Virus record (IMG/VR): IMGVR_UViG_3300022555_000014 | Length of the DNA: 64,000 nt | DNA from: an uncultured virus (IMG/VR IMGVR_UViG_3300022555_000014) | Taxonomy: Duplodnaviria > Heunggongvirae > Uroviricota > Caudoviricetes | Reading direction: 5' to 3' (one strand) | Shown: piece after piece, positions 16,898 to 38,782 of the stretch | Position numbering within the stretch: position 1 is the first letter of the stretch | How the letters are laid out: each line of letters opens with the position of its first letter | Program-made: the position numbers and the translations under genes | Notes under the pieces: generated by a model | What the model saw: the letters and a program-made list of their open reading frames with translations, nothing else | Told to the model about the DNA's origin: nothing | Database searches by the model: none

Positions 16898-16910
16898 TTT
16901 TACAACTCCC

Positions 16911-17974: not shown

Positions 17975-18595
17975 CTACGTCTGGAGTTTGAAATCTGGAC
18001 CGACATAAGTTCTAACTGGATTACCTCTTATCACGTTGTTGTGGGTTGACCACACGTCTTGTTGTTTATTTTTCAAGTCAGAAGCTTGTTGCGACTTCAG
18101 GATGTGTGCTAGTCTAGCTAGAGCCAGTGACTTGTTACGGTGTTGCGACCGTTCCTCTTCAGCACGGATAACTATGCCAGAAGGCAAGTGAGTTAGTCTA
18201 ACAGCCGATTCTGTTTTGTTTACGTGTTGACCTCCTTTTCCTCCTGATTTAAGAGTATCCCACACAAGATCAGAATCTTTGATTGCAGTGTCTAGTTCTG
18301 TGTATGGAGCTAAACAAAACACGCCAACAAACCAGTTGGAACGTCGCCAATTGGGCCTTATTGTAGATTTTCAAACCCACTGAATAGTTCCGATCCAACT
18401 ACTTAAAAACTCCGCCGGAACTTGTTCCAAAGAGATCAAGGCTGACACTAGCCCATGTTTACTCTCCTGAGAATCTAAGAGCTTGGGTTCCAACTTAAAC
18501 TCTGCCGCGTCTTTCAGAATCTCCTTTACTACCAACTGAACTGTTCGCTCACCTTCTGCCGGACCTCTGCCGGAGGTTACACTTAGCCAAGTCAC
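17975..18595 (-). CDS. prfH: peptide chain release factor homolog PrfH, interrupted by in-frame TGA (18371-18373)
   Basis: TSGRGPAE, WIGTIQWV*KSTIRPNWRRSNWFVGV, GGQHVNKTESAVR, EERSQHRNK; the two track ORFs are in one frame; directly downstream of rtcB. Confidence 0.85.
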
Positions 18596-18599
18596 AACC

Positions 18600-19736
18600 T
18601 TACCTCCTATTAGACTGTCTACGTTGTTGACGCCAGTCTTTGTCTTTGGATTCTTCCTTGAGAGAAGAGGACTTGAAAGTTACTACCGGGCGAAGTGTGG
18701 CAATTACCTTTACTAGTCCGTGGTCTATTAGAGCTTGCACAACAGTTGCTACTTTCTTATATCCCCCAGGAGCCTCTTCTTTGGCTACCTTGTTGTCTCC
18801 ACAAACTACCCTACCGCCCCACGGATTAACTTGCCAGTTACTGTCGCTTCTTTCAAAGGTCTCTAACCTAGACATTTTTCTACCAGCACCGTGGGCAACT
18901 GAAAACAAGCTTTTCTCAGAAGGTATTGGTTGGACTAGGTAGGTTAAGTCGCCACGACTACCGGGAACAACTAACAAGTCGTCAGTAGCTGGTGCAGCCC
19001 CTTTTCTATGCAGAGCTTCGTCACCAGTTACTGTAACGCTGTTGTGAGTACTGTCTAGCAGACATTTAATGTCTGTGTTAAAAGCTTCAGCGACTCGTTG
19101 TCCACACAGAGTTCGGTTAGCTCTAGCCCACTTAACCGCATTGTCATGTTGCTTGAGATAGTTTCGTCCTTCTTCAGAGTCAATAGGAAGTCCCTTGGCC
19201 TCGTGTTTAGCGGCAACTTCGTGGAAGATTGATTCTCCCAAACCTCTAGAGCCTGTATGTACTAGAAGGTACAAATTACTAGAGAGTTTTTCTGCCCAAT
19301 CAGGGTCTAGTATTTCGTGTACGATCTGAGCTTCTATGAAGTGGTTTCCAGCACCAACTGTAGAGAGGGACTTTTCGAATCCCGTACCTTCTATTTCTTT
19401 ATCCTTAAGGTACTTTTGCACGTAGTCAATGTCCCAGGGTGTATCCAGCCCTTCCATTTTACTAGCTAGTTTTTCAGGTTTCAGTTTCGACCCTGAAATA
19501 TTCAACCGAGAGAACTGCATGCCGCAACCAACGTCATTCCCGACTAGTATGGGGTGTAGTACATCTTTACTGAGGAAGGCGGCTCCTATTGGATATCCTT
19601 TACCTGGGTGTATATCAGGAAGCCCTACAACTCGTTGCATTCCTTCCAACTCTGACGCTTTATTTAGTTGCCTAACCGCTTCTCCTTCTATCCACAAGTT
19701 AGGAGAGTCGATAACCGTCACTTTCGTCCTGTGCAT
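18600..19736 (-). CDS. rtcB: RtcB-family RNA ligase (PrfH-coupled RtcB2 type)
   Basis: LPDIHPGKGYPIG, GNDVGCG, GNHFIE, VHTGSRG, HRKGA, HGAGR; WIEGEAV N-terminus typical of the prfH-linked clade. Confidence 0.92.
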   Translation of the reverse strand: MHRTKVTVIDSPNLWIEGEAVRQLNKASELEGMQRVVGLPDIHPGKGYPIGAAFLSKDVLHPILVGNDVGCGMQFSRLNISGSKLKPEKLASKMEGLDTPWDIDYVQKYLKDKEIEGTGFEKSLSTVGAGNHFIEAQIVHEILDPDWAEKLSSNLYLLVHTGSRGLGESIFHEVAAKHEAKGLPIDSEEGRNYLKQHDNAVKWARANRTLCGQRVAEAFNTDIKCLLDSTHNSVTVTGDEALHRKGAAPATDDLLVVPGSRGDLTYLVQPIPSEKSLFSVAHGAGRKMSRLETFERSDSNWQVNPWGGRVVCGDNKVAKEEAPGGYKKVATVVQALIDHGLVKVIATLRPVVTFKSSSLKEESKDKDWRQQRRQSNRR

Positions 19737-19756
19737 AATTGTTGTCCCCCCTTTAA

Positions 19757-20117
19757 CTACTTCCACTTGCTCAGAAAATCAGCCTGCCTAGCTTCAGCCT
19801 CTTTGTGAGCAGCGTGTTCGTTACCTTTATCCTTTTGAACCTTTTTAAACACAGCGTTCCAGATTAGATAACTGTATTCTTTAACTAAACAAGTAGCCCA
19901 GTGAGTTCTAAACTCAGTTCCCCACGTAGCAGACACCTTATCCTTTAGTGTACCAATCGTACCCCAAAGCTTATCAGGGGTTAAGGCAATTTCTGATTGA
20001 AGCAAAGTGACAGTTAGTTTGTCGTGAACTGAGTGGAAAAACCGGTCTGGAGATTCCGGCCAGTTGTACTTGTTAAAGTGAGTAGGGGGTGTTATCGTGA
20101 TTATACTCTTTAGCCAT
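19757..20117 (-). pseudogene. hypothetical gene with apparent frameshift at a C5 run
   Basis: ATG 20117 (GAGGG RBS) reads MAKEYNHDNTP then stops; removing one base of the G5 run at about 20085-20089 joins it to the 19757..20005 frame. Confidence 0.45.
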
Positions 20118-20137
20118 ATCTAAACCCTCTTCTTTAA

Positions 20138-20557
20138 TCAGTCAGCGCCAACTTGATTCTCTTGTTGAGCTTTCTTCAAGGCGCTCCTATTCAACATAGT
20201 TGCACGGCGATCTCGCTTCATTCCACCTTGCTGTCTAAGGTGTTCCACCGTTCTCGGAACGGTTTCAAGTTCTGCTGCTATCTCACGATCCGACAAGCCT
20301 TGTTCAAATAACGGTCGGACCATGTCAACGGTCACAGTAATAGCCCGCTTAGTGTTGTACTGATTGTGAACAACTCCGTAGTCCTTAATCAACAAGCGAA
20401 CTACTTCTCCTTTAACGCTGTAGAGTTGGCCTATAGCCTAGCAGGTAAGTTTACTGCCGTTAACCAACTCTTCCATCTTCTCGACGGTTAATCCTTTAGC
20501 TTTAGCTCTTAGCACAGCCTCTGGTTCACCCGACTTGACGTAGTCTGTATAGCGCAT
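20138..20557 (-). CDS. tandem HTH protein with in-frame TAG at 20438-20440
   Basis: ATG 20557 with AGGAG RBS; VLRAKAKGLT and LFEQGLSDREIA align with 17304..17705 on both sides of the stop. Confidence 0.65.
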
Positions 20558-20599
20558 AAGTTTACTTTCTCCTACGATAGGAAGTTAAAATTTCAACAG

Positions 20600-21259
20600 T
20601 TAAACTGTAAATCTGCCTATAATTTCGTTCATTCTACTGTTAACCTTGTTTACTATGTCGTCAGTTAGGCTGATGCAGCGTGCTTGACTAGAGTCTTCCG
20701 TCCAAATCTCTTTGAGAGCTTCCAGAATCACAGGGCGCAACCCAATCTCTATTATATTATTGACTACTGCTGAGTAGAACGGATTGATATAGTCTGCATT
20801 GCCAATCTTAGTAGTTTCAGGAGTCGCGTCTTCGGAAACTTTAGCCACTTTTGTTTCAAGAGTTGGTGATTCTGAAATGTGTTTCGAAGGTTTAATTGTT
20901 GGGACGCTATAATTTACTGAGTCCAAAACATATTCTACAAGGATGTTATTCCAGATGAAGGGTGTGCATAAAGCCATCCGACGTGAATAATCGTAGATTA
21001 AATCTCTAGCAGTAGCGTAGAAGATACGCTCAGTATTTTTAGGAATTACAACGTTGTCCAGAGTCAAAGGTGTTGCTACCCAATAAACTCCTCCGTATTC
21101 TGTTACCAAGGCTTGCTTTTTAAGTTTACGCGTTCCCTGCTTGAACGCCAAGATTGCTCGCAATTCCGACTTTGAAATATGCTGAGTAGCTACAGAGTTG
21201 GCTCTTTCTTGAGACACAGGGTTTGCTGATTGGCTTGCTGTACTAGTTTCAAGGTTCAT
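20600..21259 (-). CDS. hypothetical protein
   Basis: 219-aa ORF. Confidence 0.6.
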   Translation of the reverse strand: MNLETSTASQSANPVSQERANSVATQHISKSELRAILAFKQGTRKLKKQALVTEYGGVYWVATPLTLDNVVIPKNTERIFYATARDLIYDYSRRMALCTPFIWNNILVEYVLDSVNYSVPTIKPSKHISESPTLETKVAKVSEDATPETTKIGNADYINPFYSAVVNNIIEIGLRPVILEALKEIWTEDSSQARCISLTDDIVNKVNSRMNEIIGRFTV

Positions 21260-21422
21260 CTTGACCGCCTATTTCATTGGTTACGTTGGTTATCTCTATC
21301 TGCACCAACCTGACAACAGTAGCACTATCCCACCCGGTCTGTCAAGTGGAATTTTACTCTCAGTTAACTGTTGCTCAAGCTCAACAAAATTAGGGCTAGG
21401 ATAGACATAACTACACCCACTG

Positions 21423-21938
21423 TTAAACAGATGAAGCATTGCTGCGGGACAAATCTCCAGGCAACCCTGTGTCCTTAGCAGGAAGGTTAGCCATTGCAGT
21501 AGTTTCAAACCGAGCAGACGAACTCAACGGTTTTACCATGTCGATAATATCAGTTGACCCTAATGTGTCGGACTTCCAGAATTTTGTCAACAGCTTACTA
21601 TTAAGTATTATCCAAGAAAATAAGGCTTTCATCTCCTCTTCATTGAAGACATTGTTAATGCCCGCTACTATCTTAGGCTTACTAGAAACATTTACCAGAA
21701 ACACGTTAACGTAGTCTCCTAGTTTTCGATTCTTACTAACTCTAACGACAGGGAACTCTCCTATAGTATGACAGTTACTAACAAAGATTAACATCTTGGT
21801 AGGCATCCCTGTTGTGCTAGAATCTAAGTCAGTTAAGTTCCAGATTTCTTCCTCAGTTGGGATAACAGACACGGTTTTTGGATCAACATTTTTAGCCTGT
21901 GTTAAGTAGTAGTTGATCCTAGTTCTTGCGTCAGTCAT
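21423..21938 (-). CDS. phage protein with NL...TGLP repeat domain (second copy truncated)
   Basis: NLTDLDSSTTGMP... domain followed by MANLPAKDTGLPG that ends abruptly. Confidence 0.55.
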   Translation of the reverse strand: MTDARTRINYYLTQAKNVDPKTVSVIPTEEEIWNLTDLDSSTTGMPTKMLIFVSNCHTIGEFPVVRVSKNRKLGDYVNVFLVNVSSKPKIVAGINNVFNEEEMKALFSWIILNSKLLTKFWKSDTLGSTDIIDMVKPLSSSARFETTAMANLPAKDTGLPGDLSRSNASSV

Positions 21939-22031
21939 GCTTCAAACTCCTTAGTCAAAGTGGTAGGGTCAGCACGTTAGCCAACCCTACCACACAATCA
22001 TTCACCTGTCAAGCAGAATCTTTGACTATCT

Positions 22032-23099
22032 TCACTCTGACCGCTTTTTCTTGGAAAGGAGGTACTGCCCAATCCCAGCAATCACGATTGCCTTCTCGTC
22101 CGGTACCCCGTAGACCATCTTGGTTTTCAGGTCGGACAACATAGCGTAGATTTCTACCGCTTGTTCCAGGGCAATTTCTGGCCGTTTCTTGTGAAGAATT
22201 TCCAAGAATTGTTTCTGCGGCCAGTTAATTATTCCGGAGTTCGATACGTCAGATACCACACCCCAAGCCATGAGATGCATACTGTTCAATAGTCCTCGGA
22301 AGTTAGGACCGTTGTCGTTCATGCACCGCATAGCTGACACTAATGACGAACAGTAAATACTAAGCAAAGTCTTCATGGCAACTTGATCGGATGAAATGTC
22401 AAGTTGCTTGAGTGCTTGAGTAATTACTACATCATCAACTTTCCCACCGTTACTTGCTTGAATGTCAATGACATTAGCCAAGATTTGAAGACATTCACGC
22501 GGTGCTCCACTAGCAGCCTTGGCGATCTTAGTAATTGTTTTCGGATCAAGTTTTACTTTCTCGCCTTTACAAACTCTTAGGATTAAAGTCTCAAGGTCCT
22601 CAACTTGTACTATGTCGTTTAGAACTATGTGGCGACCGCGTTGTTTGGCAGCTTTCAGTATCTTATCAGGCTCGGAGGTGCATAAAATGAATACCACATG
22701 TGCTGGAGGTTCTTCTACCACTTTTAAAAGTGCGCTCGCGGCGACTCCTTGTAGGGCGTGGACTTCATCCATCACATAGCATTTAAAGCGTCCGCGCATA
22801 GGTTTGAAGCGACAATTCTCTGCAAGTTCACGGATGGAGTCTATGGACCGTTCAGACCCAACATTGATCTCAATGATGTCATCCGTGATACCCTCATTTA
22901 TTTCAGTCGCAATGATTCGAGCTAAGGTAGTCTTCCCAACGCCACAACTGCCTGTGATCAGAATAGTGCTGGGCACTTGCTTTCTAGCTAAGAACCCCTT
23001 TACGATACTAACCGCCTCTGGTTGCCCTACTACCTGATCTAAAGTCTTAGGACGGTATTTTACGTTTAGTGCAGACGCTGCTAAAACTGTTTCAGCCAT
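22032..23099 (-). CDS. clamp loader / DNA polymerase III gamma-tau (DnaX)-like AAA+ ATPase
   Basis: KYRPKTLDQVVGQ, Walker A GSCGVGKTT, DEVH, ALLKVVEEPP, GAPRE. Confidence 0.92.
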   Translation of the reverse strand: MAETVLAASALNVKYRPKTLDQVVGQPEAVSIVKGFLARKQVPSTILITGSCGVGKTTLARIIATEINEGITDDIIEINVGSERSIDSIRELAENCRFKPMRGRFKCYVMDEVHALQGVAASALLKVVEEPPAHVVFILCTSEPDKILKAAKQRGRHIVLNDIVQVEDLETLILRVCKGEKVKLDPKTITKIAKAASGAPRECLQILANVIDIQASNGGKVDDVVITQALKQLDISSDQVAMKTLLSIYCSSLVSAMRCMNDNGPNFRGLLNSMHLMAWGVVSDVSNSGIINWPQKQFLEILHKKRPEIALEQAVEIYAMLSDLKTKMVYGVPDEKAIVIAGIGQYLLSKKKRSE

Positions 23100-23328
23100 G
23101 GTTAACATTCCTATTTTTAATAGTTTTCCAATTACCTTTGATGTAGTCTAGTGTGCCCGAGGTTACAGAATCCTGCTGCTCATGAGTCATGGGAATCCCT
23201 GGACACTCGGTAGGCAAAGAAGATTCTGCTCCACGACACACCAGACAATTAGACAACCCGCCATCGCAGATCGGACAACAACCGGGACGGTCACACTTAT
23301 TACCGTGTTCTTCAAGTTTGTGTTTCAT
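23092..23328 (-). CDS. Cys-rich hypothetical phage protein
   Basis: CPICDGGL..C.VC.GAE.SLPTECPG. Confidence 0.65.
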   Translation of the reverse strand: MKHKLEEHGNKCDRPGCCPICDGGLSNCLVCRGAESSLPTECPGIPMTHEQQDSVTSGTLDYIKGNWKTIKNRNVNHG

Positions 23329-23345
23329 GTCAACTTGTCCTCTCG

Positions 23346-23708
23346 TCAAAGGCACCCACGGCTCCGACACCACAAATAGTTTACTGCCAAACCAGACAAC
23401 CCATCAGGATGTCTAAGCTTACGATCTTTTAAGTCTACGCCTTTATTCGGTAGCCCCTTTGCCAACTCAGACAGTCGAGCATCAACATCTGTCTTAGACG
23501 AGCGTTGGTACAGGAACTTATTACGAATAGCCCGACCTAGACTATGGTGACAAAGAATCAAGTCACCTTCCGGCATTTCCTCCAACTCTTTTTTAGCGGA
23601 AGCTGTATAGGTTTCTAAAAACCACTTCCACAAATTTTCGCAAAACTCACCCTTAACCGCATACACGCTAGGTTGTTCCGGTTTAAGTGTGTCTGTAGTG
23701 TCGGACAT
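23346..23708 (-). CDS. DUF6794-like hypothetical protein
   Basis: HHSLGRAIRN...HPDGLS pattern; AGGAG RBS. Confidence 0.55.
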   Translation of the reverse strand: MSDTTDTLKPEQPSVYAVKGEFCENLWKWFLETYTASAKKELEEMPEGDLILCHHSLGRAIRNKFLYQRSSKTDVDARLSELAKGLPNKGVDLKDRKLRHPDGLSGLAVNYLWCRSRGCL

Positions 23709-23726
23709 GTTATTTTACTCCTGTTG

Positions 23727-24041
23727 TTAAGGACACATTACGGATGCATAGGTCTTGCAGGCAACTAGACTCATGAACTGTTGAAGGTTAGGACTCAACC
23801 GCCAAACCTTCTTCTTACTGTCCCATTTGTATAGGATTACTGTATCACCATCCGACCGAAAGTGGGTTATTAGAAATTCTGGTTTACCAATAACTTGTAG
23901 AGCGTCTTTCAAATCTTCGTAGTACCCATAACCTTCGGAATATATCATCCCTTCAAGCCCAACTCCGAAAATTTCTTTTCTAGTAGAATCTTTCCCCTGA
24001 CAGGGATCGTACACTTCTTTCAACGTTGAATAGTCAAGCAT
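23727..24041 (-). CDS. hypothetical protein
   Basis: AGGAG RBS, 104 aa. Confidence 0.6.
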   Translation of the reverse strand: MLDYSTLKEVYDPCQGKDSTRKEIFGVGLEGMIYSEGYGYYEDLKDALQVIGKPEFLITHFRSDGDTVILYKWDSKKKVWRLSPNLQQFMSLVACKTYASVMCP

Positions 24042-24063
24042 TTCTAGGCTCCTTTCTTATTGA

Positions 24064-25395
24064 TCACAAGGGGTCGTTAACGTCTGGGTGGAAACCACGA
24101 GCACGAGAGTTGTGGATTGGTTTGAACCCAAGCAGGTTGGTCAAGTTTTCTAGAGGTACGAATACTGAAGCAGACTCTCGTAGAGCACGAGAGGTAATTT
24201 TGTACTCGGCTGACGGACTAATTACTATGACATTTATCCCTATAGCTTTCAACTTGCTGCAAGCGTAGCAGAAGTCACCGTCACCGGAGAACAAAATCAC
24301 GTTTTTAGTGTCACGTGTTACAGACATAATCATGTCTGTAACTATATAAGTATCCATGTTTCCTTTTACTGTTTTTACTCCACGCTCGTCAGTACGCTCA
24401 ATGCAAAATTTAGTGACAAACTCGTAACCATTGTACTTCAACCAATCATGAATTGGTTTGTACTTGTCGTAGCCAGATTGCTCATAACTACGATTGCTCA
24501 AAGATATACTGTAGTAATTTAAGCTACAGTCGTGAGAGTACTTGTGGAAAAAGTTTCTTAGAGTCAAGTAGTCAACCATGACTCCACCTAGTAGGCGTTG
24601 GCTCTCATGAAGGTTGCTAGCGTCAATAAACACCTCCGTACGTCCATACTTTAGCAACCTAATCATCAAGTCAATAGAGGATACAGTAGCGGAAAGCTGT
24701 TCTGCATCTTTTACCGAGAGTAGGTTAGACTCAGGTCCGTAGAAGTCGTTAAAATTGTCATGCTCGTTGGTTACAACAACAGTAGGTAGCATTGGCTCCA
24801 CTACGTCTGTTACTGATGTATCACCCAACTCTACACTAGGGTTAATCTCCTCCTCTAGTTCTTCTTGATGTTCTAAGAAGTTCTTTTTGAAATATTTATT
24901 CTCCTTGCAAGGCTTACTTTCTTCAGGAGCTACCTTTTCAACCTCTGATGTCTTTTGGGTCATAATATTCTGTTCTTTTGTAGTATTCTTGTGAGTAGAA
25001 GGTAGAGCTTGTGTAGCAACCTGTGCTGCAACCACAGGTTCAGCCGGTTCCTTATCGAGGACTCCTTTAGGACGTTCTTGAAAATCTTTTATAACTTCCT
25101 CCGAAGGAACTTTCTGATCAAATTTGTACCACCTATTAAGTTTCAACACATCCATAATTTTGAACACCACAGCCCTCTTGGCGTACTTAGCATTAACAAT
25201 CGTGTCTATTGACTGTGTTCCTAGATGTATCTTAATAAATGTAGTAGTCTGTTCGTCTATCTCCTCCATTTCTTTCAATCGTTGTTCAACAGCACGAGCA
25301 AGCAGATGTCTTGCTTCTTTCTTTGATACTTTGAACCTACTCTCTGCGTCAGAGATTGGATCAAAATTTTTGGACATATCCACTGGATTTCTCAC
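24064..25395 (-). CDS. NYN-domain (LabA/DUF88) PIN-like nuclease with long N-terminal extension
   Basis: VFIDASNL, KGNMD, LFSGDGDF, SRALRESA. Confidence 0.85.
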   Translation of the reverse strand: MRNPVDMSKNFDPISDAESRFKVSKKEARHLLARAVEQRLKEMEEIDEQTTTFIKIHLGTQSIDTIVNAKYAKRAVVFKIMDVLKLNRWYKFDQKVPSEEVIKDFQERPKGVLDKEPAEPVVAAQVATQALPSTHKNTTKEQNIMTQKTSEVEKVAPEESKPCKENKYFKKNFLEHQEELEEEINPSVELGDTSVTDVVEPMLPTVVVTNEHDNFNDFYGPESNLLSVKDAEQLSATVSSIDLMIRLLKYGRTEVFIDASNLHESQRLLGGVMVDYLTLRNFFHKYSHDCSLNYYSISLSNRSYEQSGYDKYKPIHDWLKYNGYEFVTKFCIERTDERGVKTVKGNMDTYIVTDMIMSVTRDTKNVILFSGDGDFCYACSKLKAIGINVIVISPSAEYKITSRALRESASVFVPLENLTNLLGFKPIHNSRARGFHPDVNDPL

Positions 25396-25432
25396 TTTCT
25401 TTTTCTGCTTAAAAAACTTTAGAAATGCTTAA

Positions 25433-25549
25433 CAATTTCTCTTGACAAACTCCTTTATATAGAGTAGACTACGTAATCTTGCCTCCTCTCTTATAAGGCA
25501 TTTGAAAAACCATCTTACCAGAAGAGACAAGATTTGTCAAGAGAAATTT
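25433..25549. promoter_or_regulatory. two face-to-face sigma70-like promoters forming an inverted repeat
   Basis: Plus: AATTTCTCTTGACA...TAGACT; minus: AAATTTCTCTTGACA-N17-TAAGAT. Confidence 0.65.
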
Positions 25550-25637
25550 TCAACCTGATAACTTAATTTTGTAGTAACTGAAGATGTTCTCTAAAATCTT
25601 AGGTTGCACTACACGTCTTTCAAGGAGTTATTTTTAC

Positions 25638-26807
25638 ATGATCGAAAGCTTTGGTTCTACCTTCTTAGACGAGGCTACAGACTTGTTCTACTTGGACCGT
25701 AATTACGACCGTATGATGGCTAGTGCGGCTCGTAGTAACGTTAAAAATTCAGCTATTCTTTTTGGCATACAGGAAAAGCTGCCAGAGTTGTTAGCTGCTA
25801 TAGCGTCAGTTAATTCTAGCCTTAATCCTTTAGATTTGAATCTAAAGGCTCACCGTTATTCTGATCGGCAAGGTAAAAAGATTTGTAGTTTACACGTAGA
25901 CTCATCTAGTATAGAGTATAAGAAGTTCATCACTGCTATTCCCGCTAAGCGGATCAAGTCTTCTGACTTTAGTTCGGCTATGTCTTGTTATAAAGAGTTT
26001 AAAGAAGTTTTATCCTACGTAGGAACTAAGTCTGGAGCAACTTGTTTTGGAGTTATGGAGTTTGAGCTTCAGAAAATCCACGAGAAAAACCACATCACAG
26101 GAAAGGTGTCTACTGTCTCTTGTTTGCAGCCGCACATGCATATCCTTTCTACCAAGAAGTTAAAGGCTAAAGACTTTCCCGAATACTTTTTCGGAGATAT
26201 TAACGTTGACTCACTTTGTGCTGCTCGGCCACTAGTCAACAAAAATATTAAGCCCGGCACAGCTAAGCGTATTGTTAACTACCTGTTCAAACCTCTCAAG
26301 ACTTCTAACGTTTGGAAATTTACTGACGAGGTGACTGGAAAGCCTATTGGTCAGAAAAAGTACAACACCAAGACTCCGCCGTCTTACTTGATTCGTTTAA
26401 ACATTGAGTATCTCCTCAACAAGACTGAGATTACTGACACTATCATCTGCACCGACGATCTGAAAATTACTAAAACAGGAATCGTCACCACTAAAGAATT
26501 GTTACTCGCCCGTCAAAAGAAAATTGAGAAGCGGGAGAAGTTAGAAAAAATTAAACAACGGTTTGCTGAGCGTAAAGAGTCTAGAAAGTTGAAAAAACTT
26601 TCCGACCAAGAACGTAAGGCTCTCGCTGAACAGAAAAAACTTCAGGCTGAGTTGAAGGCTAACCTTAAGGCCGCACTCAAGCGCAAGGCTACAATTACTC
26701 CAGTCTACTCCACCGTTTTCGCCGTTGACTTTTCCACTCCGTCTTTCAATTCTTACGCTGGTACTGGTTTCCAGCAGACTGATTTGTTTGATCCAGAAGC
26801 GTTATAA
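25638..26807 (+). CDS. HUH-endonuclease (rolling-circle Rep-like) protein
   Basis: GVMEF, PHMHIL (HUH motif II), NYLFK (YxxK motif III); Lys-rich coiled C-terminus; AAGGAG RBS before ATG 25638. Confidence 0.7.
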   Translation: MIESFGSTFLDEATDLFYLDRNYDRMMASAARSNVKNSAILFGIQEKLPELLAAIASVNSSLNPLDLNLKAHRYSDRQGKKICSLHVDSSSIEYKKFITAIPAKRIKSSDFSSAMSCYKEFKEVLSYVGTKSGATCFGVMEFELQKIHEKNHITGKVSTVSCLQPHMHILSTKKLKAKDFPEYFFGDINVDSLCAARPLVNKNIKPGTAKRIVNYLFKPLKTSNVWKFTDEVTGKPIGQKKYNTKTPPSYLIRLNIEYLLNKTEITDTIICTDDLKITKTGIVTTKELLLARQKKIEKREKLEKIKQRFAERKESRKLKKLSDQERKALAEQKKLQAELKANLKAALKRKATITPVYSTVFAVDFSTPSFNSYAGTGFQQTDLFDPEAL

Positions 26808-27116
26808 GTGGCTTTAGTCTACGAAAAGCCACTGCCTTAGCCGACCTAGAGGAAGTCCGCTAAGAAGAATACACTCCTCAGACAATTTGAAGTGGTTAAA
26901 GGCTTGCCAGAATCGGCATAGCCTTCTATATTTTTGCCTTTTTTCTGGAGCAACCTTCTTTCAAACACCCTTCAACACCACGTTTCTACAGCCCAATCCC
27001 AGATTCGTCTTTTACAACCCCTCTTTATTCCAACAACCTACAGCCATACACTACCGTTTAACCATTATTTACCAGCCCTACTTTCCTCTATTCCAGAATC
27101 TGGGCTACAGTATTAC

Positions 27117-27300
27117 CCTCCCTAGTCCCCTCATTAAACAAATAGTAGAATACCTTCGGTGAAGTACTAATGGTTTAGAATAGTCAGGTATATCCTCCCT
27201 AGTCCCCTCATTAAACAAATAGTAGAATACCTTCGGTGAAGTACTAATGGTTTAGAATAGTCAGGTATATCCTCCCTAGTCCCCTCATTAAACAAATAGT
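27117..27300. repeat. 77-bp direct tandem repeat, about 2.4 copies
   Basis: Copies start at 27117, 27194 and 27271 (CCTCCCTAGTCCCCTCATTAAACAAATAGT...). Confidence 0.95.
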
Positions 27301-27465
27301 TAAATAATAGGAACATGTTTGCTAGGGGATCGAGCAACTTGAAAAAGATACTAACGGTTAGTAATAAATGATTGAGCTGACTGACTGACGGGTTAGTTGA
27401 AGTATTGAGGAGTACCAGGGTTAATTGACTCATTGGTTTAAGACTATTCCACCAGTCTAAAAGAA

Positions 27466-27521
27466 TTAAGGGGTTAAGGGGTTAAGGGGTTAAGGGGTTA
27501 AGGGGTTAAGGGGTTAAAGGG
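27466..27521 (+). repeat. (TTAAGGGG)6 plus TTAAAGGG telomere-like / G-quadruplex-prone repeat
   Basis: Directly visible. Confidence 0.95.
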
Positions 27522-27554
27522 TTAAAAGACTGCGGGTTAGCTGGTATCGATAGG

Positions 27555-28295
27555 ATTGACTCAGGATTGGAAAAGAATCCTTAAACTGGTCTACAATAAA
27601 CCGTTGTTAGTTAGAGGTACCTGTTAAAAAGAATCAATTGACTCTAAAGTCTAAGAACCCAGACTTGAAAATGACTCACTGGTAAAATAGAATCCAATAA
27701 GCTCAATAGACTCTAGTGAACTATACTAAGAATCCAACTACCACTTGACTCACTAGTACCAATAATTAAAAATAGTTGAGTCTAGACTCCTGAGTAAGAG
27801 CCAAAAAGAATCAAAAAACCAAACTGAATCCAAAAGCATCAATGACTCTAGTTAATACCCTTAGACCCTTAGACTACTAGTACTAGAATCCAAAGAGTAG
27901 TTGACTCACAGGTACGTAGTTGAATATAATTAAAAGTGGTTGGTTGAGTCCAGATAAGAATCGAAAATGATTCCTAGGAGTCACTAGAACTAACCCTTAG
28001 CTAAAAAGTGTAGATAAATTGAGTCCAAGGTAAGAGAAGAGTCAATAGGCACTCATAGTAGAATCCATTAAAAAAGAATCCAGAGTCACAGTTGAGTCCA
28101 ATGAGTCCAAGGTAAAGAGTCAATAGGATAGAGTCACAGTTGACTCACTAGTACCAAATAGTTAAAAGGAATCACTGTTGAGTCCAGATAAGAATCACTA
28201 GTAGTTAGAATAAGTGATTAAATAATAGTTGAGTCCAATGAGTCCGATTAAAAAGAGTCAATAAAAGTCAATAAAAATAAAAACCGGAGTCAAAA
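27555..28295. promoter_or_regulatory. dense GANTC (CcrM-type methylation site) array
   Basis: About 37 GANTC sites by manual count in about 740 bp, versus about 3 expected. Confidence 0.85.
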
Positions 28296-28653
28296 GAAAC
28301 ACTAGTACGTATAGTAAATGAGGTTAGAATAGGTAGTAAAGTGGTAGTAATAAAGGGGGTAAAAAATTTGGAGCCTTCGCGCAATCCGGCAAATGTCTAA
28401 ATATAGAGAATCGAAAAATCGGAACCCTCAAAAAATCCTTCCCGGTCTCCAGAGTTCCAAAAGTCACCCTCAGAATCCAAATCAATCCTCATAACCTATT
28501 ACACAACAAGCCCGTTTGAGACCTCCATTTTTCACAGAATCGGTTTTGTGTGTCCTAGCCTACCCAGAATCAAACTTTTTTAGAAAACCCAAAAAATCCA
28601 GAAAAAGTTAAAGTTAAAGAGTTTGGTGACTCTCAGAAATGTGCCCAAGTTAC

Positions 28654-28737
28654 TCTGAAAATAAAATTTCTCTGAAAATAAAATTTCTCTGAAAATAAAA
28701 TTTCTCTTGACAGGGTCGTTGTAGCCTGGTACACTGT
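28654..28737 (+). promoter_or_regulatory. sigma70-like promoter preceded by 17-bp repeat x3
   Basis: (TCTGAAAATAAAATTTC)x3 then TCTTGACA-N17-TACACT. Confidence 0.75.
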
Positions 28738-28786
28738 CCTCCAATCCAATGTTACACGAGAATATCCAATCCTAGGAGCAACAAAA

Positions 28787-29482
28787 ATGACCAAGACCTC
28801 GGCAGCGAGCCAGTCTCCTAAGCTTAACTACTTGCCTAGTGATTCAGTACTACTCAACCCTGGTACTAGTTTGTACACGTGGTCGTCAATCATCGACGCT
28901 ATCAAACAAGAGTTGGCTAAACTACAAACCTCGTACTTCTGTTTAACCGAAGGGCAGTTTGAAATGTTGTTTGGGTACCGTCTAGATGACGTGCCTGCAG
29001 AAGACATTGACTCGATGCTCTATTTAAAATCTGATGGCTCCCTGAGAGTTCTAGAACACGAGGTGAATGACATTTTGGTGTTAATCGTAACCCTTGATAA
29101 CCTAGTACCTGTCTTTATGGAGTTTGGGGTTGATCAACCTGTTCCTGACATAAACAAGAAAGTTAGACTGCCTAACCGTAAGGTATTATTGAACGATTTC
29201 ATGACTGACAATATGGTTGAAGCCTTAGATGAAGATAACATAGTCAGACAACCTAAAGAGGCTAACAAGTTATTCCAGTTTCTAGACAACCTCATGTTTG
29301 ATGCCACGTTGAAAATCAAGTGTGATGAAAACCTAAGAAAAGAGCTAATAACCAAATACCCTGGGAAAATAACCAAATACCCTGGAAACTTGCTGTTAAC
29401 CCATAAAGGTGTAATATTCTCAAACACTGTAGAAGGAATCCAATTCGCTAACCGAGTCCTAAACTGGCCTATCGAGTCCTAA
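28787..29482 (+). CDS. hypothetical protein
   Basis: AGGAG RBS; internal in-frame 21-bp duplication (ITKYPG x2). Confidence 0.7.
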   Translation: MTKTSAASQSPKLNYLPSDSVLLNPGTSLYTWSSIIDAIKQELAKLQTSYFCLTEGQFEMLFGYRLDDVPAEDIDSMLYLKSDGSLRVLEHEVNDILVLIVTLDNLVPVFMEFGVDQPVPDINKKVRLPNRKVLLNDFMTDNMVEALDEDNIVRQPKEANKLFQFLDNLMFDATLKIKCDENLRKELITKYPGKITKYPGNLLLTHKGVIFSNTVEGIQFANRVLNWPIES

Positions 29483-29599
29483 TATCATAAGACACTTCCA
29501 GTAAAACCCAGAGGCGTTAATTTGTGCTTGACACACTGAGACGCCTCTGGTACACTGCTCTTCAATCGGTTCCACCTTTGGACCCTTGTAGGAACGCCC

Positions 29600-29947
29600 A
29601 TGCCCTCTACCTCTGTGACTGTACGAGACAGTGCTCCTGGTATCTCTGGCACCCTAGTAGATAGTAAAACTCTATTCAACTTGCTTAAAGTTCATCCAGG
29701 AAAGATTAGGCTAAAAGACCCTAACACGTCTTCCTACTTGCAAGTAATCAAGAATCACCTATTAGCTGAACTGGTTGCTTGGTCTAACCCAACTAACCCA
29801 GTAACACCTTTCCCTAAGCTAACTTTCTCAATAACTAGAGGGGATTTGTACCTTAGAGGAATCCCTCCGTCTGTGTTTTCTGCAGTCAGGGAAAGGCACT
29901 TTGTACAACCCCTGAAACCAATAAAACCCCTACAACCCAAGAAATAA
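29600..29947 (+). CDS. hypothetical protein
   Basis: Preceded by a TTGACA...TACACT promoter and AGGA. Confidence 0.6.
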   Translation: MPSTSVTVRDSAPGISGTLVDSKTLFNLLKVHPGKIRLKDPNTSSYLQVIKNHLLAELVAWSNPTNPVTPFPKLTFSITRGDLYLRGIPPSVFSAVRERHFVQPLKPIKPLQPKK

Positions 29948-29959
29948 GGATACATACCT

Positions 29960-30599
29960 ATGATAGAGTACACTCCTGGAATTACCATCGAACGAGTTAC
30001 TTCTGGATTCTTTCGTTTAAGTGGCGACTCGATGATGTACGACCGTCGCCTAACAGACACCACCAACGGTAACGTCGCTCACGTCCGGCACAATGATAAT
30101 GGTCAACTTGCAGTTTACAGTAAAGACGGCGTTCTTGTAACTACCAAGACGTACAAAACCCTCTGTAAACCCTCTGTAAACCCTCTGGCAAGCCCACAAC
30201 GCTGCTGCTAAATACTTGGAGTTTGAACGTGGGTTACCCAAGTTTAAGGACAAGCTCACTACTCTCAACCATCTCAACCCCCAAGGAGGTGAACTAGTAA
30301 CTATTCCGGTTAACACTCAACGTACTGTTCTAGTAACCTACTGTAAACACGTCTGGGTGTCCGAAGTACCCCGTGACGTATGTCACTCTATGGATCAATT
30401 ACAGGTGGAGAATATTGTAGTAGTTGTGGTCAACATGCTGTTAGGAATTGATTTTATCAACACTATTGAGAAATACCTCCGTGACGTATGTCACATTCCT
30501 ACAGCAAAGATTGTAACCTTCAATGTGTTGGAACAAGTTCCTCCTGAGAATTCCTGGGTTAATCAACTTCTGCTGCCGCCTGAAATCCGTTATCTTTGA
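29960..30599 (+). pseudogene. single gene frameshifted by an 11-bp tandem repeat
   Basis: (AAACCCTCTGT)2 AAACCCTCTGG at 30156-30188; with one copy the frame reads YKTLWQAHNAAAKYLEFERG, joining track ORFs 29960..30211 and 30216..30599. Confidence 0.7.
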
Positions 30600-31198: not shown

Positions 31199-32194
31199 AT
31201 GCAGACCCAAACCCTACAAACCCTTAATCCAGTCAACTGTGAAGTACTAGACGTTGAAGAGGTTAAACAGCATTTGGAAAGCGGACTGTCCGCAAGTTTT
31301 TTAGCGAGCTACTACAACATAAATAGTAATAGTTTCCTGGTTTGGATGAAGAAACAAGGGTTAGAAGACTACATTGGAAAGTCTACTCGTGTAGACAAAG
31401 TTCTAGACCCTGAACTAGAAACTATTAAAGAAAGGTTGGAAGCAGGAGAACCTCCTCATAAAATAGTTAATTACTACGACTGTTCTAGTAGCTCCTTTAA
31501 CACATGGTTACGAAAACAAGGACTCGGTGACTACATTAGATATCGCACAGATATAGCTACTCTACTACCTGAGTTGGAGCGTATTAAGGAAAAGCTAGAA
31601 GCAGGAGAATCTTCCCACTCTATAGCTATTCAGTACAACGTAAGCCATCAAGGGTTTACTAACTTGTTACGCAGTAATGGTCTAGGTACCTACATTAGGA
31701 CGATGAAAAACATAGACTCTTACCTTTCTTCAGAGTTTGACACCATTAAAGAGCTATTGGAATTAGGAGAATCTGCTCGCTCTGTAGCTATCAAGTATGA
31801 CATAAACCCTGGAGCCCTTTGTGGTTGGCTTAGACGCCATGGCTTAGGTGACTATATTGAAAGTTTCCGCAAGAGACTAGTCTATACAGATGACGATAAG
31901 GCTACAATAGTGAAGATGTTTATGTCTGGACAAAATCCAAGTAGTATCTGTAACACCTTAAACAAGGACAATTTAGGACCACCACATTTATTCTGTACAA
32001 TTAGCTTATTGTTGCTCAGACTTATTGGTAAAGATACCTACTCACATCAGATAAACCTTAACAGGCGAGTCAACACTTCGCAAGCTACAACTAAAATTCA
32101 TCTCTCTGGAGTTGACGGTGGAAAAAGAGGTAAAGGTCCTGGCAGTAGACTCACTGCACTTGCCGGACATTCTAAATACTACCGAGGCAACTGA
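31199..32194 (+). CDS. multi-HTH repeat DNA-binding protein
   Basis: Repeated units of about 53 aa, LE.GES...IA..Y.....WLR..GLG.YI. Confidence 0.75.
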   Translation: MQTQTLQTLNPVNCEVLDVEEVKQHLESGLSASFLASYYNINSNSFLVWMKKQGLEDYIGKSTRVDKVLDPELETIKERLEAGEPPHKIVNYYDCSSSSFNTWLRKQGLGDYIRYRTDIATLLPELERIKEKLEAGESSHSIAIQYNVSHQGFTNLLRSNGLGTYIRTMKNIDSYLSSEFDTIKELLELGESARSVAIKYDINPGALCGWLRRHGLGDYIESFRKRLVYTDDDKATIVKMFMSGQNPSSICNTLNKDNLGPPHLFCTISLLLLRLIGKDTYSHQINLNRRVNTSQATTKIHLSGVDGGKRGKGPGSRLTALAGHSKYYRGN

Positions 32195-35904: not shown

Positions 35905-35919
35905 TTGGGGAAGTTGATC

Positions 35920-36207
35920 ATGCAAAGAGTTGAATTGCCTATAAGCTTGGAAGAAGTGGTAGAGCTATATAACAGCGGCAAGTCTATCAAAAAGATAGCA
36001 GACTATCTAGGTGTGAGTGCTTGGACCCTGCACGATAGGCTTAGGAAAGCAGATGTTAAACTACGCCCTATAGGACGAAATCCTAAGCCTATCGACCTAG
36101 ATAAAGTTAGAAAATTGCGTAATGAGGGTGTAAGTTGGGCTAATATTAGTATAGAGTTGGGCTTGTGTAGGGAAAGTCTAAGAGTGCGCTTTGAAAAAGC
36201 AGCTTAA
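35920..36207 (+). CDS. tandem HTH protein
   Basis: LYNSGKSIKKIADYLGVS; second unit LRNEGVSWANIS. Confidence 0.75.
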   Translation: MQRVELPISLEEVVELYNSGKSIKKIADYLGVSAWTLHDRLRKADVKLRPIGRNPKPIDLDKVRKLRNEGVSWANISIELGLCRESLRVRFEKAA

Positions 36208-36231
36208 CGCTGTAAAAGGAGGGATAAACCG

Positions 36232-36870
36232 ATGCCTATTAGTACCGAGCTAAAGCAACGTGTGTACGACCTGTACGCTAGTGGAAAAACTTTGTTGCAG
36301 GTTAGTCAAGCAACTGGAGTTGGTGTACCGATTGTAAGAGAAATAGTAAGACCTATTATTAGAAAGGCGGGTGGCGTCCACTTAAAAAAGTTTGACCGAG
36401 AGGAAGCCGAAAAACTCTATTCAGAAGGTAAAAGTCTGCGAGAGGTCGGTAGGCTATTAGGTGTAAGTTACGAAGCGGTTCGTTTGGTTCTTTCTAACAC
36501 TAGAACTCCAGGTTTTTATAAGTATCCGGATACTTACGTTAGTTCTGATGTGGTGGTTAAAGAGTTTGTTGATGGCTTATCTATGATTGCAATTTCTGAG
36601 AAATACGATGTAACTATAGGTTATGTCCGACAGACATTGACATCTGCTGGACTAAACACTATTAGAAATTATGATAATAAGGCCAAACTTGATCTTGATG
36701 AAGACAAGTTAGTAGAACTCTACGAAAGCGGTAAAAGTTTATCTAAGCTTAGCACTATGTTTGGAGTAAGTGTCACCACCATACAACGCAGACTTAAAGA
36801 TAACGGTGTGGTTATGCATCCTCCTGGTACTAAATTCTTTGTAAAAGAAGATGAACAAATCAGTGCTTGA
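36232..36870 (+). CDS. four-repeat HTH protein
   Basis: Repeated LY.SGKSL..V....GVS units. Confidence 0.8.
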   Translation: MPISTELKQRVYDLYASGKTLLQVSQATGVGVPIVREIVRPIIRKAGGVHLKKFDREEAEKLYSEGKSLREVGRLLGVSYEAVRLVLSNTRTPGFYKYPDTYVSSDVVVKEFVDGLSMIAISEKYDVTIGYVRQTLTSAGLNTIRNYDNKAKLDLDEDKLVELYESGKSLSKLSTMFGVSVTTIQRRLKDNGVVMHPPGTKFFVKEDEQISA

Positions 36871-37063
36871 CAGCCAGGTAATCCTGTGGTAATATCATCG
36901 TCATCACATCTCCAAGGAGATAAATGACCCATGACCCCTTCACCAAGGGCTGCCCTACAATCCACACTATCTACGGACCAATTGACATTGCATACCTCAA
37001 AGAGTGTCAAAATCTAGCAGCTTGAAGGTCAAATCCTTAGCCGAAGGCAAACAGGAGGTTTTT

Positions 37064-37483
37064 ATGCCAACTCCCTTAACAACTTCTGAAGAAGACCTAA
37101 TATGTCGTGACTATAAGTCTGGCGAATCGTTAGATTCGATATGCAAGACTTATAAAATAGGCATAACTCAGTTAAAGAAGTTGTTGAAGGAGTCTGGTGT
37201 AAAACAGCCTAAGAAAGACATAGACTTTTCCACTTTGGCTAAAGACTACGAAAAAGGAAAATCGCTAAAAACTCTAGCTGTTGAGAACAACGTGTCTCTA
37301 TCTCACATGTGGTGCGGTCTTAGGGATAAGGTAAAATTTAGAGATAAAGGTAGAAATCGTAAGTTTGACTACGCTTATGCAAAACACCTTTACTCAAGCG
37401 GTTTGACCTTCAGAGATATAGCTAAGCTATTGGATGTCAGTCCAGAAGCCGTACGTCTAGTAATAACTCAACTACAAAAGTAA
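37064..37483 (+). CDS. three-repeat HTH protein
   Basis: YKSGESL, YEKGKSL, YSSGLTF units; AGGAGG RBS. Confidence 0.8.
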   Translation: MPTPLTTSEEDLICRDYKSGESLDSICKTYKIGITQLKKLLKESGVKQPKKDIDFSTLAKDYEKGKSLKTLAVENNVSLSHMWCGLRDKVKFRDKGRNRKFDYAYAKHLYSSGLTFRDIAKLLDVSPEAVRLVITQLQK

Positions 37484-37488
37484 CCTTC

Positions 37489-37854
37489 ATGGAACACCGG
37501 GAACACAGGGAACTCAAGAACGCAAGTAGAGATTCTTTAGTCGTAAGTCTGTACACGTCAGGTAGTACCTACTCCGAGATAGTAGAAATTGTGAGTGTCA
37601 GCACCAAGACTGTACGAAAAATACTTAAACAGAACAACATTCCAATACGAAAGTCTGGATGTAGAGCGTTAGAGATTGATCTGGAAGCCATTGCTAAAGG
37701 CTACGAAAACGGTAAATCCCTTCTATATTTGAGTAAGGTCTTAGGAGTAAGCCACGACACTGTCTACCGACGCTTGAAAGAAGCCGGTTATCCAATTAAG
37801 AGAACTGTTGAAAAGGAACTAAGTAATGTCTGCAGAGACGAATTGGCCTCTTAG
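37489..37854 (+). CDS. tandem HTH protein
   Basis: LYTSGSTYSEI and YENGKSL...LGVSHDTVYRRL. Confidence 0.75.
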   Translation: MEHREHRELKNASRDSLVVSLYTSGSTYSEIVEIVSVSTKTVRKILKQNNIPIRKSGCRALEIDLEAIAKGYENGKSLLYLSKVLGVSHDTVYRRLKEAGYPIKRTVEKELSNVCRDELAS

Positions 37855-38782
37855 AAAAGAGGACCTTTACGATAGGTTTATTGTTCAGAATTTAAGCCAT
37901 AAGCAAATTGCTGACCAAGTAGGTGTCTCAGAATCTGCTGTGTCTGGATTGTTGTACCGGCTAAACATCTTTAAAAACAAAGAAGGGCGGACACCTGAAG
38001 AAATTGAACGTCGGAAGGAAGAGATTCGCTCTAGGCGAAGGGATCGTAGGCGTGAGCTTAGAAAAGACCCTGTCAAGGCTGAGCAAGAGTTGGAGCGTTT
38101 GAGGGTTATAGAAGAAGCTCGAGAAGAGGCTCGTCGTCTCAAGAAAGAAAAACAAGAACTGCGTCAACAGGCTAAGCAGGAAGCCAAATTAGGACGAATT
38201 GAAGCTGACTTACTACGGAAACAACGTAAGGAAGAAAAGCTTAAAGCTTCTGAGTTGAAAGAGAAATGTTCTCAACTAAAACAACAAGATAAGTTGTTTA
38301 AACAGAAGATGAAGGAGGCTAGGGTTAACGCTCGTGCTAACTCTAAGCTTCTAAAAGAGGCTCAGGAAGAACAAAAGAGGCTAGATAAGGTTGCCTTGCA
38401 GGAAGCTAAAAACCGAGCCAAAGAAGAATTGAAAATAGCCAAAGCTCTTGCTCGTGAATTGGCTAAAGCTTCTAAGTCGGTTAAGTCCCCTAAGACCGCC
38501 AGACTTGAGAAGGTCAACCCGGAACAAACTCCTGTGATTGTTGTGTCGGCGGCTACACAAGTTACTGAGGTTACTGTCGTTACTGATGTTGTAGAGGACT
38601 ACTTTAGTGTCCTAGCTGACCCTAAACAGCCAAAAGGGTGTAGGTTCATCCACGGAGACATTGGTCCTAAAGAGAACTGGAGCTTTTGTCAGCAGCCCAA
38701 GGTGTCAAACAGCAGCTACTGTAAAAAACATCACGATATATGTCACACAGGTTTCTTTCTGTCCTATAAGAAGGTAGCTTAA
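37826..38782 (+). CDS. gcrA: GcrA-like cell-cycle transcriptional regulator
   Basis: N-terminal HTH (LSHKQIADQVGVSESAVSGLLYRL), long charged linker, C-terminal CRFIHGD...FC..P....SYCKKH signature. Confidence 0.8.
   Translation: MSAETNWPLRKEDLYDRFIVQNLSHKQIADQVGVSESAVSGLLYRLNIFKNKEGRTPEEIERRKEEIRSRRRDRRRELRKDPVKAEQELERLRVIEEAREEARRLKKEKQELRQQAKQEAKLGRIEADLLRKQRKEEKLKASELKEKCSQLKQQDKLFKQKMKEARVNARANSKLLKEAQEEQKRLDKVALQEAKNRAKEELKIAKALARELAKASKSVKSPKTARLEKVNPEQTPVIVVSAATQVTEVTVVTDVVEDYFSVLADPKQPKGCRFIHGDIGPKENWSFCQQPKVSNSSYCKKHHDICHTGFFLSYKKVA

Follow-up and report, generated by a model that had tools for sequence, protein, structure and literature searches.

What is the function of a 741-bp non-coding stretch in which the degenerate palindrome GANTC recurs at close intervals, in the genome of a large uncultured phage? 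The stretch lies in a window of 64 kb (64,000 nucleotides; the window is the whole stretch of DNA that was analysed), many ORFs of which had no family match in our ORF family scans. It lies in the largest non-coding gap of that window:

27555..28295, no strand assigned: array of 37 GANTC sites; the + strand is rich in A (A 307, T 178, G 133, C 123)
26808..28786, no strand assigned: non-coding gap of 1979 bp between two + strand genes

An exact count gave 37 GANTC sites (starts 27558-28287) with a mean spacing of 20.3 bp and gaps of 7 to 56 bp, which agrees with the recurrence about every 20 bp, with variable spacers, described in an earlier note on this DNA. That note had also put the excess at more than 10-fold over random, and had proposed an exact count against a Markov background. 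Mononucleotide and dinucleotide shuffles of the region gave 2.2 and 3.8 expected sites per 741 bp (maxima of 8 and 11, each in 2000 shuffles), Markov models of order 1, 3, and 4, trained on the window minus the array region, gave 2.7, 3.2, and 3.9 (maximum 12), and 614 sliding windows outside the region held a mean of 3.8 sites (maximum 14). The estimate is borne out: the array is enriched 9.5-16.5 fold over the 2.2-3.9 sites expected from these backgrounds (2.7-3.9 under the Markov models), with a Poisson p of 9e-24 against the outside rate. The enrichment is local and not genome-wide, with a GANTC density of 50/kb in the array vs 4.8/kb in coding and 7.2/kb in other intergenic DNA, and among the 16 families of palindromes of the form XYNY'X' the GANTC family is the only one enriched (9.6 fold; the next reaches 2.4 fold). 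The sole other dense GANTC cluster of the window (58.7-59.1 kb, 11 sites in 300 bp) is attributable to the Asp/Glu-Ser codons of an acidic protein. All four forms of the site are present, as had been claimed, but their usage is very uneven (GAGTC 15, GAATC 12, GACTC 9, and GATTC only once). Restriction avoidance or a restriction decoy was rejected as an explanation, with 330 GANTC sites outside the array vs a dinucleotide expectation of 238 for the whole window.

The array is not an artefact of assembly, because a 1195-bp contig over 27488-28682 was recovered identically, at single-copy phage depth, in runs of two studies (2017 and 2020). A third study has two differing bases (27725 and 27791), both of which are off the GANTC cores and too few for a constraint test.

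A tandem repeat or minisatellite was likewise rejected: Tandem Repeats Finder saw no array-wide period, no offset in a self-alignment of the array exceeded 2.6 sd, and the 37 sites fall into 34 clusters (25-mers at ≥80% identity), the near-copies being limited to three pairs. The excess thus survives the collapsing of duplications, since 34 of the 37 site contexts stay distinct. These observations also bear on the reading that we consider most improbable, in which the array has no dedicated function and consists of the decayed products of old amplifications of short units, in a spacer that tolerates them, with GANTC shared by descent. The few internal duplications (52 nt at 71% identity, and exact pairs of 20 nt and 19 nt) and the young tandem repeats in which the neighbouring DNA is rich would be consistent with such decay, whereas the distinctness of the contexts, the lack of a standout offset or period, the exact retention of the core amid flanks that vary over at least four word classes, and the identity of the sequence in the 2017 and 2020 runs all argue against it.

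The surrounding gap contains several other elements. From left to right, it comprises stem-loops, a C-rich and G-poor tract, a 77-bp repeat, a short repeat, the GANTC array, four sparser CAGAATC-type sites, a 17-bp repeat, and a promoter of a phage-wide family:

26807..26864, + strand: two stem-loops of 9-10 bp, directly following the stop codon of P0007 and lacking a T run
27117..27300, no strand assigned: 77-bp tandem repeat, 2.4 copies as assembled
27466..27525, + strand: (TTAAGGGG) x 7.5, with G4 runs on the + strand
27901..27930, + strand: putative sigma-70-like promoter TTGACT-18-TATAAT, 11/12 consensus, the best in the gap
28188..28283, no strand assigned: AT-rich right end of the array, candidate unwinding element
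28653..28735, + strand: 17-bp repeat x 3.2, holding the second least stable 40-mer of the window

At 28188-28228 lies the 40-mer duplex with the lowest stability in the 64 kb, and 28243-28283 also ranks within the top 15. The runner-up is in the 17-bp repeat, and the two least stable 40-mers are both inside the gap. The 17-bp repeat runs into the promoter aaaaTTTCTCTTGACA-17-TACACT (28707-28735), a member of the phage-wide family, which is predicted from its sequence to drive the operon starting at 28787. There is no credible ORF in the gap, and none of at least 20 aa on the + strand between 27628 and 28392; a coding repeat was accordingly rejected, as was a tRNA-like array (none detected by ARAGORN). 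A search of Rfam with 26000-30000 gave a single chance-level match (E 0.57). A divergent-promoter gap was also rejected, as the strand switch lies at 25396-25583, where two members of the promoter family aaaaTTTCTCTTGACA-17-TAnnnT face apart, and the array is 2 kb further right. Promoter-like sites are overrepresented in the gap (10 vs 4.1 +/- 2.1 in shuffles), and nine of the 10 are on the + strand; a simple promoter cluster was nevertheless rejected, because only one of the 10 is a strong match.

If the palindrome itself were the selected unit, as the earlier note proposed in preference to simple tandem amplification, the sites should be indifferent to strand. The non-tandem character and the shared GANTC core hold, whereas selection on the bare palindrome is unsupported, since the sites are strongly directional. 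GANTC is the common core of at least four longer words (TTGAGTCCA, TTGACTCAC, AAGAATCC, and AGAGTCAAT), and the most enriched 7-mers are TGAGTCC (seven copies), AAGAATC (seven), AGAATCC (six), TGACTCA (five), and AGAGTCA (five). GARTCC occurs 14 times on the + strand and never on the - strand; the corresponding ratios are 7:0 for GASTCAC, 5:0 for TTGAGTCCA, and 6:0 for AGAATCC, while GAATC is found 12 times vs a single GATTC. The flanks are biased as well, with WW before and A or C after 32 of the 37 sites in each case, and with C following a site 16 times vs G preceding one three times. All strand-locked words read in the same sense as the flanking genes. The array further divides into two halves that differ in their predominant words:

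27555..27907, + strand: left half, with GACTC 8 and GAATC 7 in alternation, and GAGTC 1
27555..27907, + strand: composite unit AGAATCCAA-N8-9-WTGACTC, four copies within the left half
27637, 27706, and 27841, + strand: AWWGACTCT, three copies in the left half
27946..28291, + strand: right half, with GAGTC 14, GAATC 5, GACTC 1, and GATTC 1
27946..28291, + strand: TTGAGTCCA, five copies within the right half
28038, 28116, and 28254, + strand: AGAGTCWWT, the reverse complement of the left-half 9-mer, three copies in the right half

Among the sites with C or G in the centre (S-type sites), a switch of the central base takes place mid-array, from C to G (GACTC accounts for 8 of the 9 S-type sites of the left half and GAGTC for 14 of the 15 of the right), and their order, <<<<<><<<>>>>>>>>><>>>>>, gives a Fisher value of 1e-4 and was reached by one of 2000 permutations with the split point left free (p 0.0005). 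The orientation of GAATC is constant across the halves (seven left, five right). The best promoter match of the gap (27901-27930) sits at the switch, with a GACTC overlapping its -35 hexamer. Judged by sequence, the 9-mer class that is inverted between the halves has a symmetry of the type expected of duplex DNA. The strand-locked words indicate that the functional units are asymmetric sites of 7-9 bases built on a GANTC core, as expected of protein-binding sites, with methylation of that core as a factor that may come in addition. A check for helical phasing at about 10.5 bp, also proposed in the earlier note, came out negative: periodogram power was 4.3 at 10.6 bp, compared with 7.0 at 19.3 bp and 5.2 at 9.6 bp, none of which is significant over the ~1000 periods scanned.

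The array is therefore most likely a selected set of ~37 short (7-9 bp), mostly strand-locked putative binding sites that share a GANTC core; directional longer words with biased flanks fit protein sites and not a bare methylation target. As to what such a set is for, we tentatively favour, as a possibility that falls somewhat short of an even chance, a DNA-level protein-docking (iteron-like) field belonging to an origin/early-control region and possibly gated by methylation; the binding proteins, the origin function, and the role of methylation are what we infer here. Several features point in this direction: the position in the largest non-coding gap, the three other repeat families, the easily melted DNA, and the replication genes to the left, in a region that is explained by no ORF, tRNA, or Rfam family. 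The replication block (clamp loader, DnaC-like loader, and SbcC-like gene) is 4-20 kb to the left. Classical iterons are 17-22 bp long, few in number, and helically phased. The array has one feature of an iteron-type origin in the adjoining AT-rich candidate unwinding element (28188-28228), and it has repeated 7-9-mers, although classical iterons are longer and more uniform; against the iteron reading are the word length of 7-9 bp, the number of sites (37), and the non-significant phasing, regular phased spacing being absent. The minimum of the cumulative GC skew, at ~33 kb, is away from the array and counts against an origin there.

In a docking field of this kind, monomeric helix-turn-helix (HTH) modules would each read one site of 5-7 bp, and many such modules would coat the field; the readers could be the tandem-HTH proteins of the phage, the GcrA-like P0003, or the Rep-like orphan P0007. 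The C-left and G-right halves, with their oppositely oriented 9-mer class, would flank a promoter-like AT-rich centre, and the right half would lead up to the most easily melted duplex of the window, the point at which the strands would first come apart. Because each site contains the CcrM-type target GANTC, methylation could gate occupancy: an adenine methylase of the host or of the phage could change the occupancy of the field and thereby time firing.

A comparable control of occupancy and firing through clustered methylation sites is familiar from the GATC sites of Escherichia coli oriC (Dam/SeqA) and of the phage P1 origin and pac site. The phage array resembles these in that a palindromic target of adenine methylation is packed above chance in a cis region, inside longer protein-binding words. 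It differs in that the target is GANTC and not GATC, in being about three times longer with its 37 sites, and in being known from sequence alone; no methylase was found among the 70 scanned ORFs of the window. The origins of SaPI/PICI elements have short iterons bound by a Rep helicase/initiator, and lambda-type origins combine iterons with AT-rich DNA. The likeness to these consists in many short sites by a melted AT-rich stretch, with a candidate initiator gene and replication genes near, whereas the words of the phage belong to at least four classes, follow no regular spacing, and greatly exceed those of such origins in number, and its candidate initiator, P0007, is weakly Rep-like.

The candidate initiator and the other potential readers of the field are encoded on either side of it, with the five HTH-repeat genes and P0003 located 2.4-10 kb downstream:

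25584..26807, + strand: P0007 (407 aa), orphan gene directly upstream of the gap, a lead as candidate initiator
31199..32194, + strand: P0004, tandem-HTH protein with four repeats of ~58 aa
35905-36207, 36232-36870 (P0005, four HTH), 37004-37483, and 37489-37854, + strand: four more HTH-repeat genes
37826..38782, + strand: P0003, GcrA-family protein with an N-terminal HTH, a long charged linker, and a C-terminal C-x15-C-x10-C-x2-H

P0003 is the basis of an explanation that gives methylation the leading part. In this explanation, which we regard as unlikely though worth weighing, the array is an epigenetic pad in which CcrM-type methylated GANTC is read by a phage or host GcrA that boosts the promoters at 27901-27930 and 28707-28735, such that early transcription or replication would depend on how far the DNA is methylated or replicated. 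It would account for GANTC being the only enriched palindrome of the 16 and the only element common to all site classes. Also in its favour, 19 of the 37 sites fit YGAKTC on one strand, and at seven of 40 promoter-like sites a GACTC overlaps the -35 hexamer, five of these lying beyond the gene for the GcrA-like protein, on its downstream side. P0003 passes the Pfam gathering score of the GcrA family (PF07750; 31.2 bits vs 26.9), and its two domains match separately and in the right order, the HTH with 22.8 bits (residues 6-53 to profile positions 2-50) and the C-terminal zinc motif with 16.8 bits (profile positions 109-143). Caulobacter GcrA has the comparable motif C-x14-C-x9-C-x2-H and binds sigma-70 region 2; a single DNA-binding domain of the protein recognises 7 bp with GANTC as their core, and its sites of action can be on either side of a start site (PMC5887438). 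The phage system would share with the CcrM/GcrA promoters of Caulobacter the GANTC core and a GcrA-family HTH and CCCH zinc protein in the same genome (PMC4647560, PMC5887438, PMC5172544). GcrA homologues are moreover known in phages, for example phiCbK and the cyanophage Pam5, and are reported without a linked site array (PMC3556154, PMC9382816).

The finer comparison with GcrA is less favourable. The residues of GcrA that read GANTC and the two methyl groups are R33, N34, I37, G38, H41, and R42 (PMC5887438); in an alignment of P0003 with the structure of the GcrA DNA-binding domain, 5yiu_A (E 1.1), the corresponding residues are E, S, S, G, Y, and R, such that two of six are kept (G38 and R42) and, with the other four differing, GANTC specificity of P0003 is not to be assumed. 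The extended GcrA consensus of Caulobacter, YGAKTCK (PMC4647560), fits five of the 37 sites. The number of sites in the phage array (37) also contrasts with the one to four GANTC sites per described promoter of Caulobacter and Sinorhizobium (PMC5172544), and in pelagiphages GANTC is depleted, not enriched (PMC9516812). Further points against the epigenetic pad are that none of the 70 scanned ORFs matched a methylase family, that strand-locked flanks and a switch from C to G are unexpected from methylation alone, and that P0003 has no homologue detectable by a homologue search or by tblastn against phages. The HTH of P0003 has no significant similarity to P0005. A fuller version, which we consider improbable, would have the phage possess an epigenetic system of its own, in which the tandem-HTH proteins and a sigma-70 cofactor, a diverged relative of GcrA, jointly read a CcrM-type-methylated field, sensing the un-, hemi-, or fully methylated state and timing both origin firing and the switch away from early transcription.

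Either the proteins built of single HTH modules or P0007 would be the likely readers of the docking field. P0004 and P0005 are each chains of four HTH modules, the best NCBIfam match of which is HTH_Cbp1, the family of the tandem-HTH protein of Sulfolobus that binds CRISPR DNA repeats (NF040595). The likeness lies in the fact that such chains bind repeat arrays. The differences are that no CRISPR array is present here and that the scores are 35 and 56 bits, far under the curated cutoff of 140, for which reason P0004 and P0005 are not members of the Cbp1 family. By analogy, we conjecture that they may bind the GANTC field. P0005 gave no tblastn match in phages.

P0007, the end of which is 750 bp upstream of the array, may be considered a weakly Rep-like candidate initiator on the basis of its sequence. 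It has an HUH-like PHMHIL at residues 183-188 and NYLFKP ~47 residues further on (~231-236), with no motif 1 assignable, and its best local match to pC194 Rep is at the HUH motif (PHMHIL vs PHFHVL, E 0.31). Clusters of Rep_1 and REP_ORF2-G2P are found among the neighbours of P0007 in the ESM Atlas (features 0.93-0.94), and five of the eight structure rows of the Atlas are Rep clusters with TM values of 0.33-0.47 against the Atlas's own model. No Rep family was matched in Pfam, PHROGs, NCBIfam, PDB, or by plasmid tblastn, even with E up to 10, whereas pC194 Rep, used as a control, scores 198.7 bits against the Rep profile. Among 1.8 billion representatives, P0007 found itself alone; for pC194 Rep, the homologues among the 120 matches listed were all 99-100% identical. 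The AlphaFold model of P0007 has a pLDDT of 37, too poor for a structure search. The 7-mer said to be the pC194-type nick-site word occurs 16 times in the window but nowhere in 16131-29093, and so is absent from the gap.

The gap is co-oriented with the flanking genes and has no terminator-like site on its + strand, and it may therefore simply be transcribed. This raises the question of whether the array acts as RNA. Multi-site RNAs that serve as sponges are exemplified by CsrB-type RNAs, and in an analogous reading, which we hold to be quite improbable, an A-rich transcript with ~37 GANUC-core motifs, one per ~20 nt, would serve an RNA-binding protein or a nuclease as sponge or scaffold, transcribed together with the flanking + strand genes or from the promoter at 27901-27930. 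The position of all strand-locked words on the sense strand would be accounted for, as would the strand bias of the promoter-like sites and the absence of terminator-like sites on that strand, and genes for RNA processing are near the array (NYN nuclease domain, RtcB ligase, and RF-1 domain). On the other hand, Rfam gave a chance-level match only, predicted folding is no better on the + than on the - strand (z -2.25 vs -2.45), and the inverted 9-mer class is a symmetry of the DNA type.

Another kind of cis-acting short-box site would be a partition centromere or a packaging-recognition region near the genome end, a reading that we rate as very unlikely. Plasmid centromeres reportedly can consist of very short boxes in mixed orientation; the parH centromere of plasmid TP228, for instance, is said to have arrays of ACTC tetramer boxes bound by ParG. 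The GANTC array is comparable in that AT-rich spacers separate copies of a degenerate, very short box, which is part of GACTC and GAGTC and recurs in both direct and inverted orientation, but it differs in lacking the regular 4-bp spacers and an adjacent parFG, and GAATC lacks the box. A gene that might bear on partition is encoded at the left end of the window:

3-584: ParB-CE domain gene, identified by family scan

A genome end near the array could be suggested by an 89-kb public contig that terminates at 27242, inside the adjacent 77-bp repeat. However, this contig end is explained by a collapsed repeat, as the unitig of the 77-bp repeat has 14-67 times the phage depth (four runs), and contigs cannot show the ends of molecules; neither a ParA-type nor a terminase gene was found beside the array. 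We rate the centromere or packaging reading, together with neutral decay, as less likely than the docking, epigenetic, and RNA readings.

Dense clusters of methylation targets are a hallmark of bacterial replication timing and of epigenetic switches. No description of a GANTC array in a phage was found in the openly searchable full-text literature, which was the scope of our search. If the phage does have an epigenetic system of its own, this would be a phage counterpart of the alphaproteobacterial cell-cycle circuit, at about ten times the scale of any described GANTC promoter. The 37-site directional field with its GcrA-family gene would offer a cloneable system for studying the use or hijacking of CcrM/GcrA-type epigenetics by phages. 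It could also reveal the way in which very short sites, when arrayed, are recognised by proteins that string single HTH modules together. In the more sober docking reading, it marks the probable origin/early-control region of a large freshwater phage lineage for which we found no cultured or sequenced relatives.

No relative of the phage turned up in our searches. The region 27100-28800 had no match to plasmids and phages by blastn, viral contigs seeded by three neighbouring genes and one exact 20-mer yielded no relative, and genome contigs scanned with the 77-bp repeat and a TnpB-like protein gave no match. A metagenome scan recovered nothing beyond the same phage and a 35%-identical clamp loader on a contig of 69% GC without any array, and a sequence look-up yielded no array resembling this one. 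The clamp loader of the phage had 1447 phage matches, the best 25 of which are all at or below 32% identity, and a homologue search with the NYN protein returned two proteins, one of them the NYN protein of the phage itself. In addition to the replication block, the window encodes RtcB, the NYN-domain protein, a T4-endoV-like glycosylase, and a thymidylate-synthase-like protein; as it belongs to a large phage, the term virion DNA in the earlier note was reasonable wording. The 89-kb public contig matches window positions 12035-27242 at 100% identity and continues further left, from which the phage genome is at least ~126 kb, with at least 62 kb of it falling outside the 64-kb window. The phage is present in freshwater and lake metagenomes of three studies.

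Within the GANTC array of the non-coding gap (27555-28295), two further sequences are enriched: CTAG occurs 10 times, compared with 3.5 expected, and ACTAGT four times, compared with 0.2 expected. In addition, several of the GACTC sites are followed by ACTAGTAC, which suggests a second motif within the array. The other GANTC cluster of the window arises from codon choice alone in an acidic low-complexity protein. This protein and the repeats of the gap are as follows:

27117-27300, 77-bp tandem repeat, 2.4 copies as assembled
27466-27525, + strand, (TTAAGGGG) x 7.5, with seven G4 runs
58673-59524, acidic low-complexity protein with Asp/Glu-Ser runs, then a Lys/Ala/Pro-rich tail

The 89-kb public contig of the same phage ends within the 77-bp repeat. 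In four metagenome runs, the 107-base unitig of this repeat was 14-, 21-, 67-, and 64-fold deeper than the phage contigs on either side; the real array is probably much longer than assembled, or the unit is also present in other abundant genomes. The G4 runs of the shorter repeat could form a G-quadruplex, and contigs from two runs are four units shorter here. Further along the gap, each of the four runs contains a near-match to 56 bases (28527-28582), with five changes and two gaps, on a separate contig that is 2567 bases long and similar in depth; this is probably a second copy located elsewhere in the phage genome.

Promoter sequences occur as follows:

3881, 13201, 25442, 25540, 28707, 29528, 35425, 38810, 45323, 58575, 60847, and others, phage-wide promoter family defined by a sequence pattern
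50717-53155, three paralogous cassettes, each with the same ~80-base promoter in front

Members of the phage-wide family consist of an A-tract, TTTCTC, TTGAC(A/T), a 17 bp spacing, and often ggTACACT, and have the same orientation as the genes; the strand switch at 25396-25583 holds a divergent pair of them. In the cassette promoters, the -35 hexamer overlaps GACTC (at 50789, 51516, and 52463).

The window also encodes putative DNA-binding proteins and other genes:

37826-38782, + strand, GcrA-family protein (P0003)
31199-32194 and 35905-37854, + strand, five-gene tandem-HTH cluster, two to four HTH modules per gene
14030-15784, gene of the TnpB/IS605 OrfB type that carries a Cas12f-like TNB domain and is surrounded by the phage replication block
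2343-3881, thymidylate-synthase-like protein fused to a pterin-binding DUF4346 domain

P0003 has a diverged recognition helix and a charged, coiled-coil-like linker of ~190 residues that separates the HTH from a CCCH domain; no homologs were detectable by protein homolog search or by tblastn against phages. The best named match of the tandem-HTH cluster is Cbp1, which binds CRISPR repeats, with a score under the Cbp1 cutoff. A search of 185,579 species genomes yielded no close relative of the TnpB-type gene. The thymidylate-synthase-like gene neighbors genes for a ParB-CE domain protein (3-584) and a HAD hydrolase (597-1343), and together these could constitute a DNA base-modification module.
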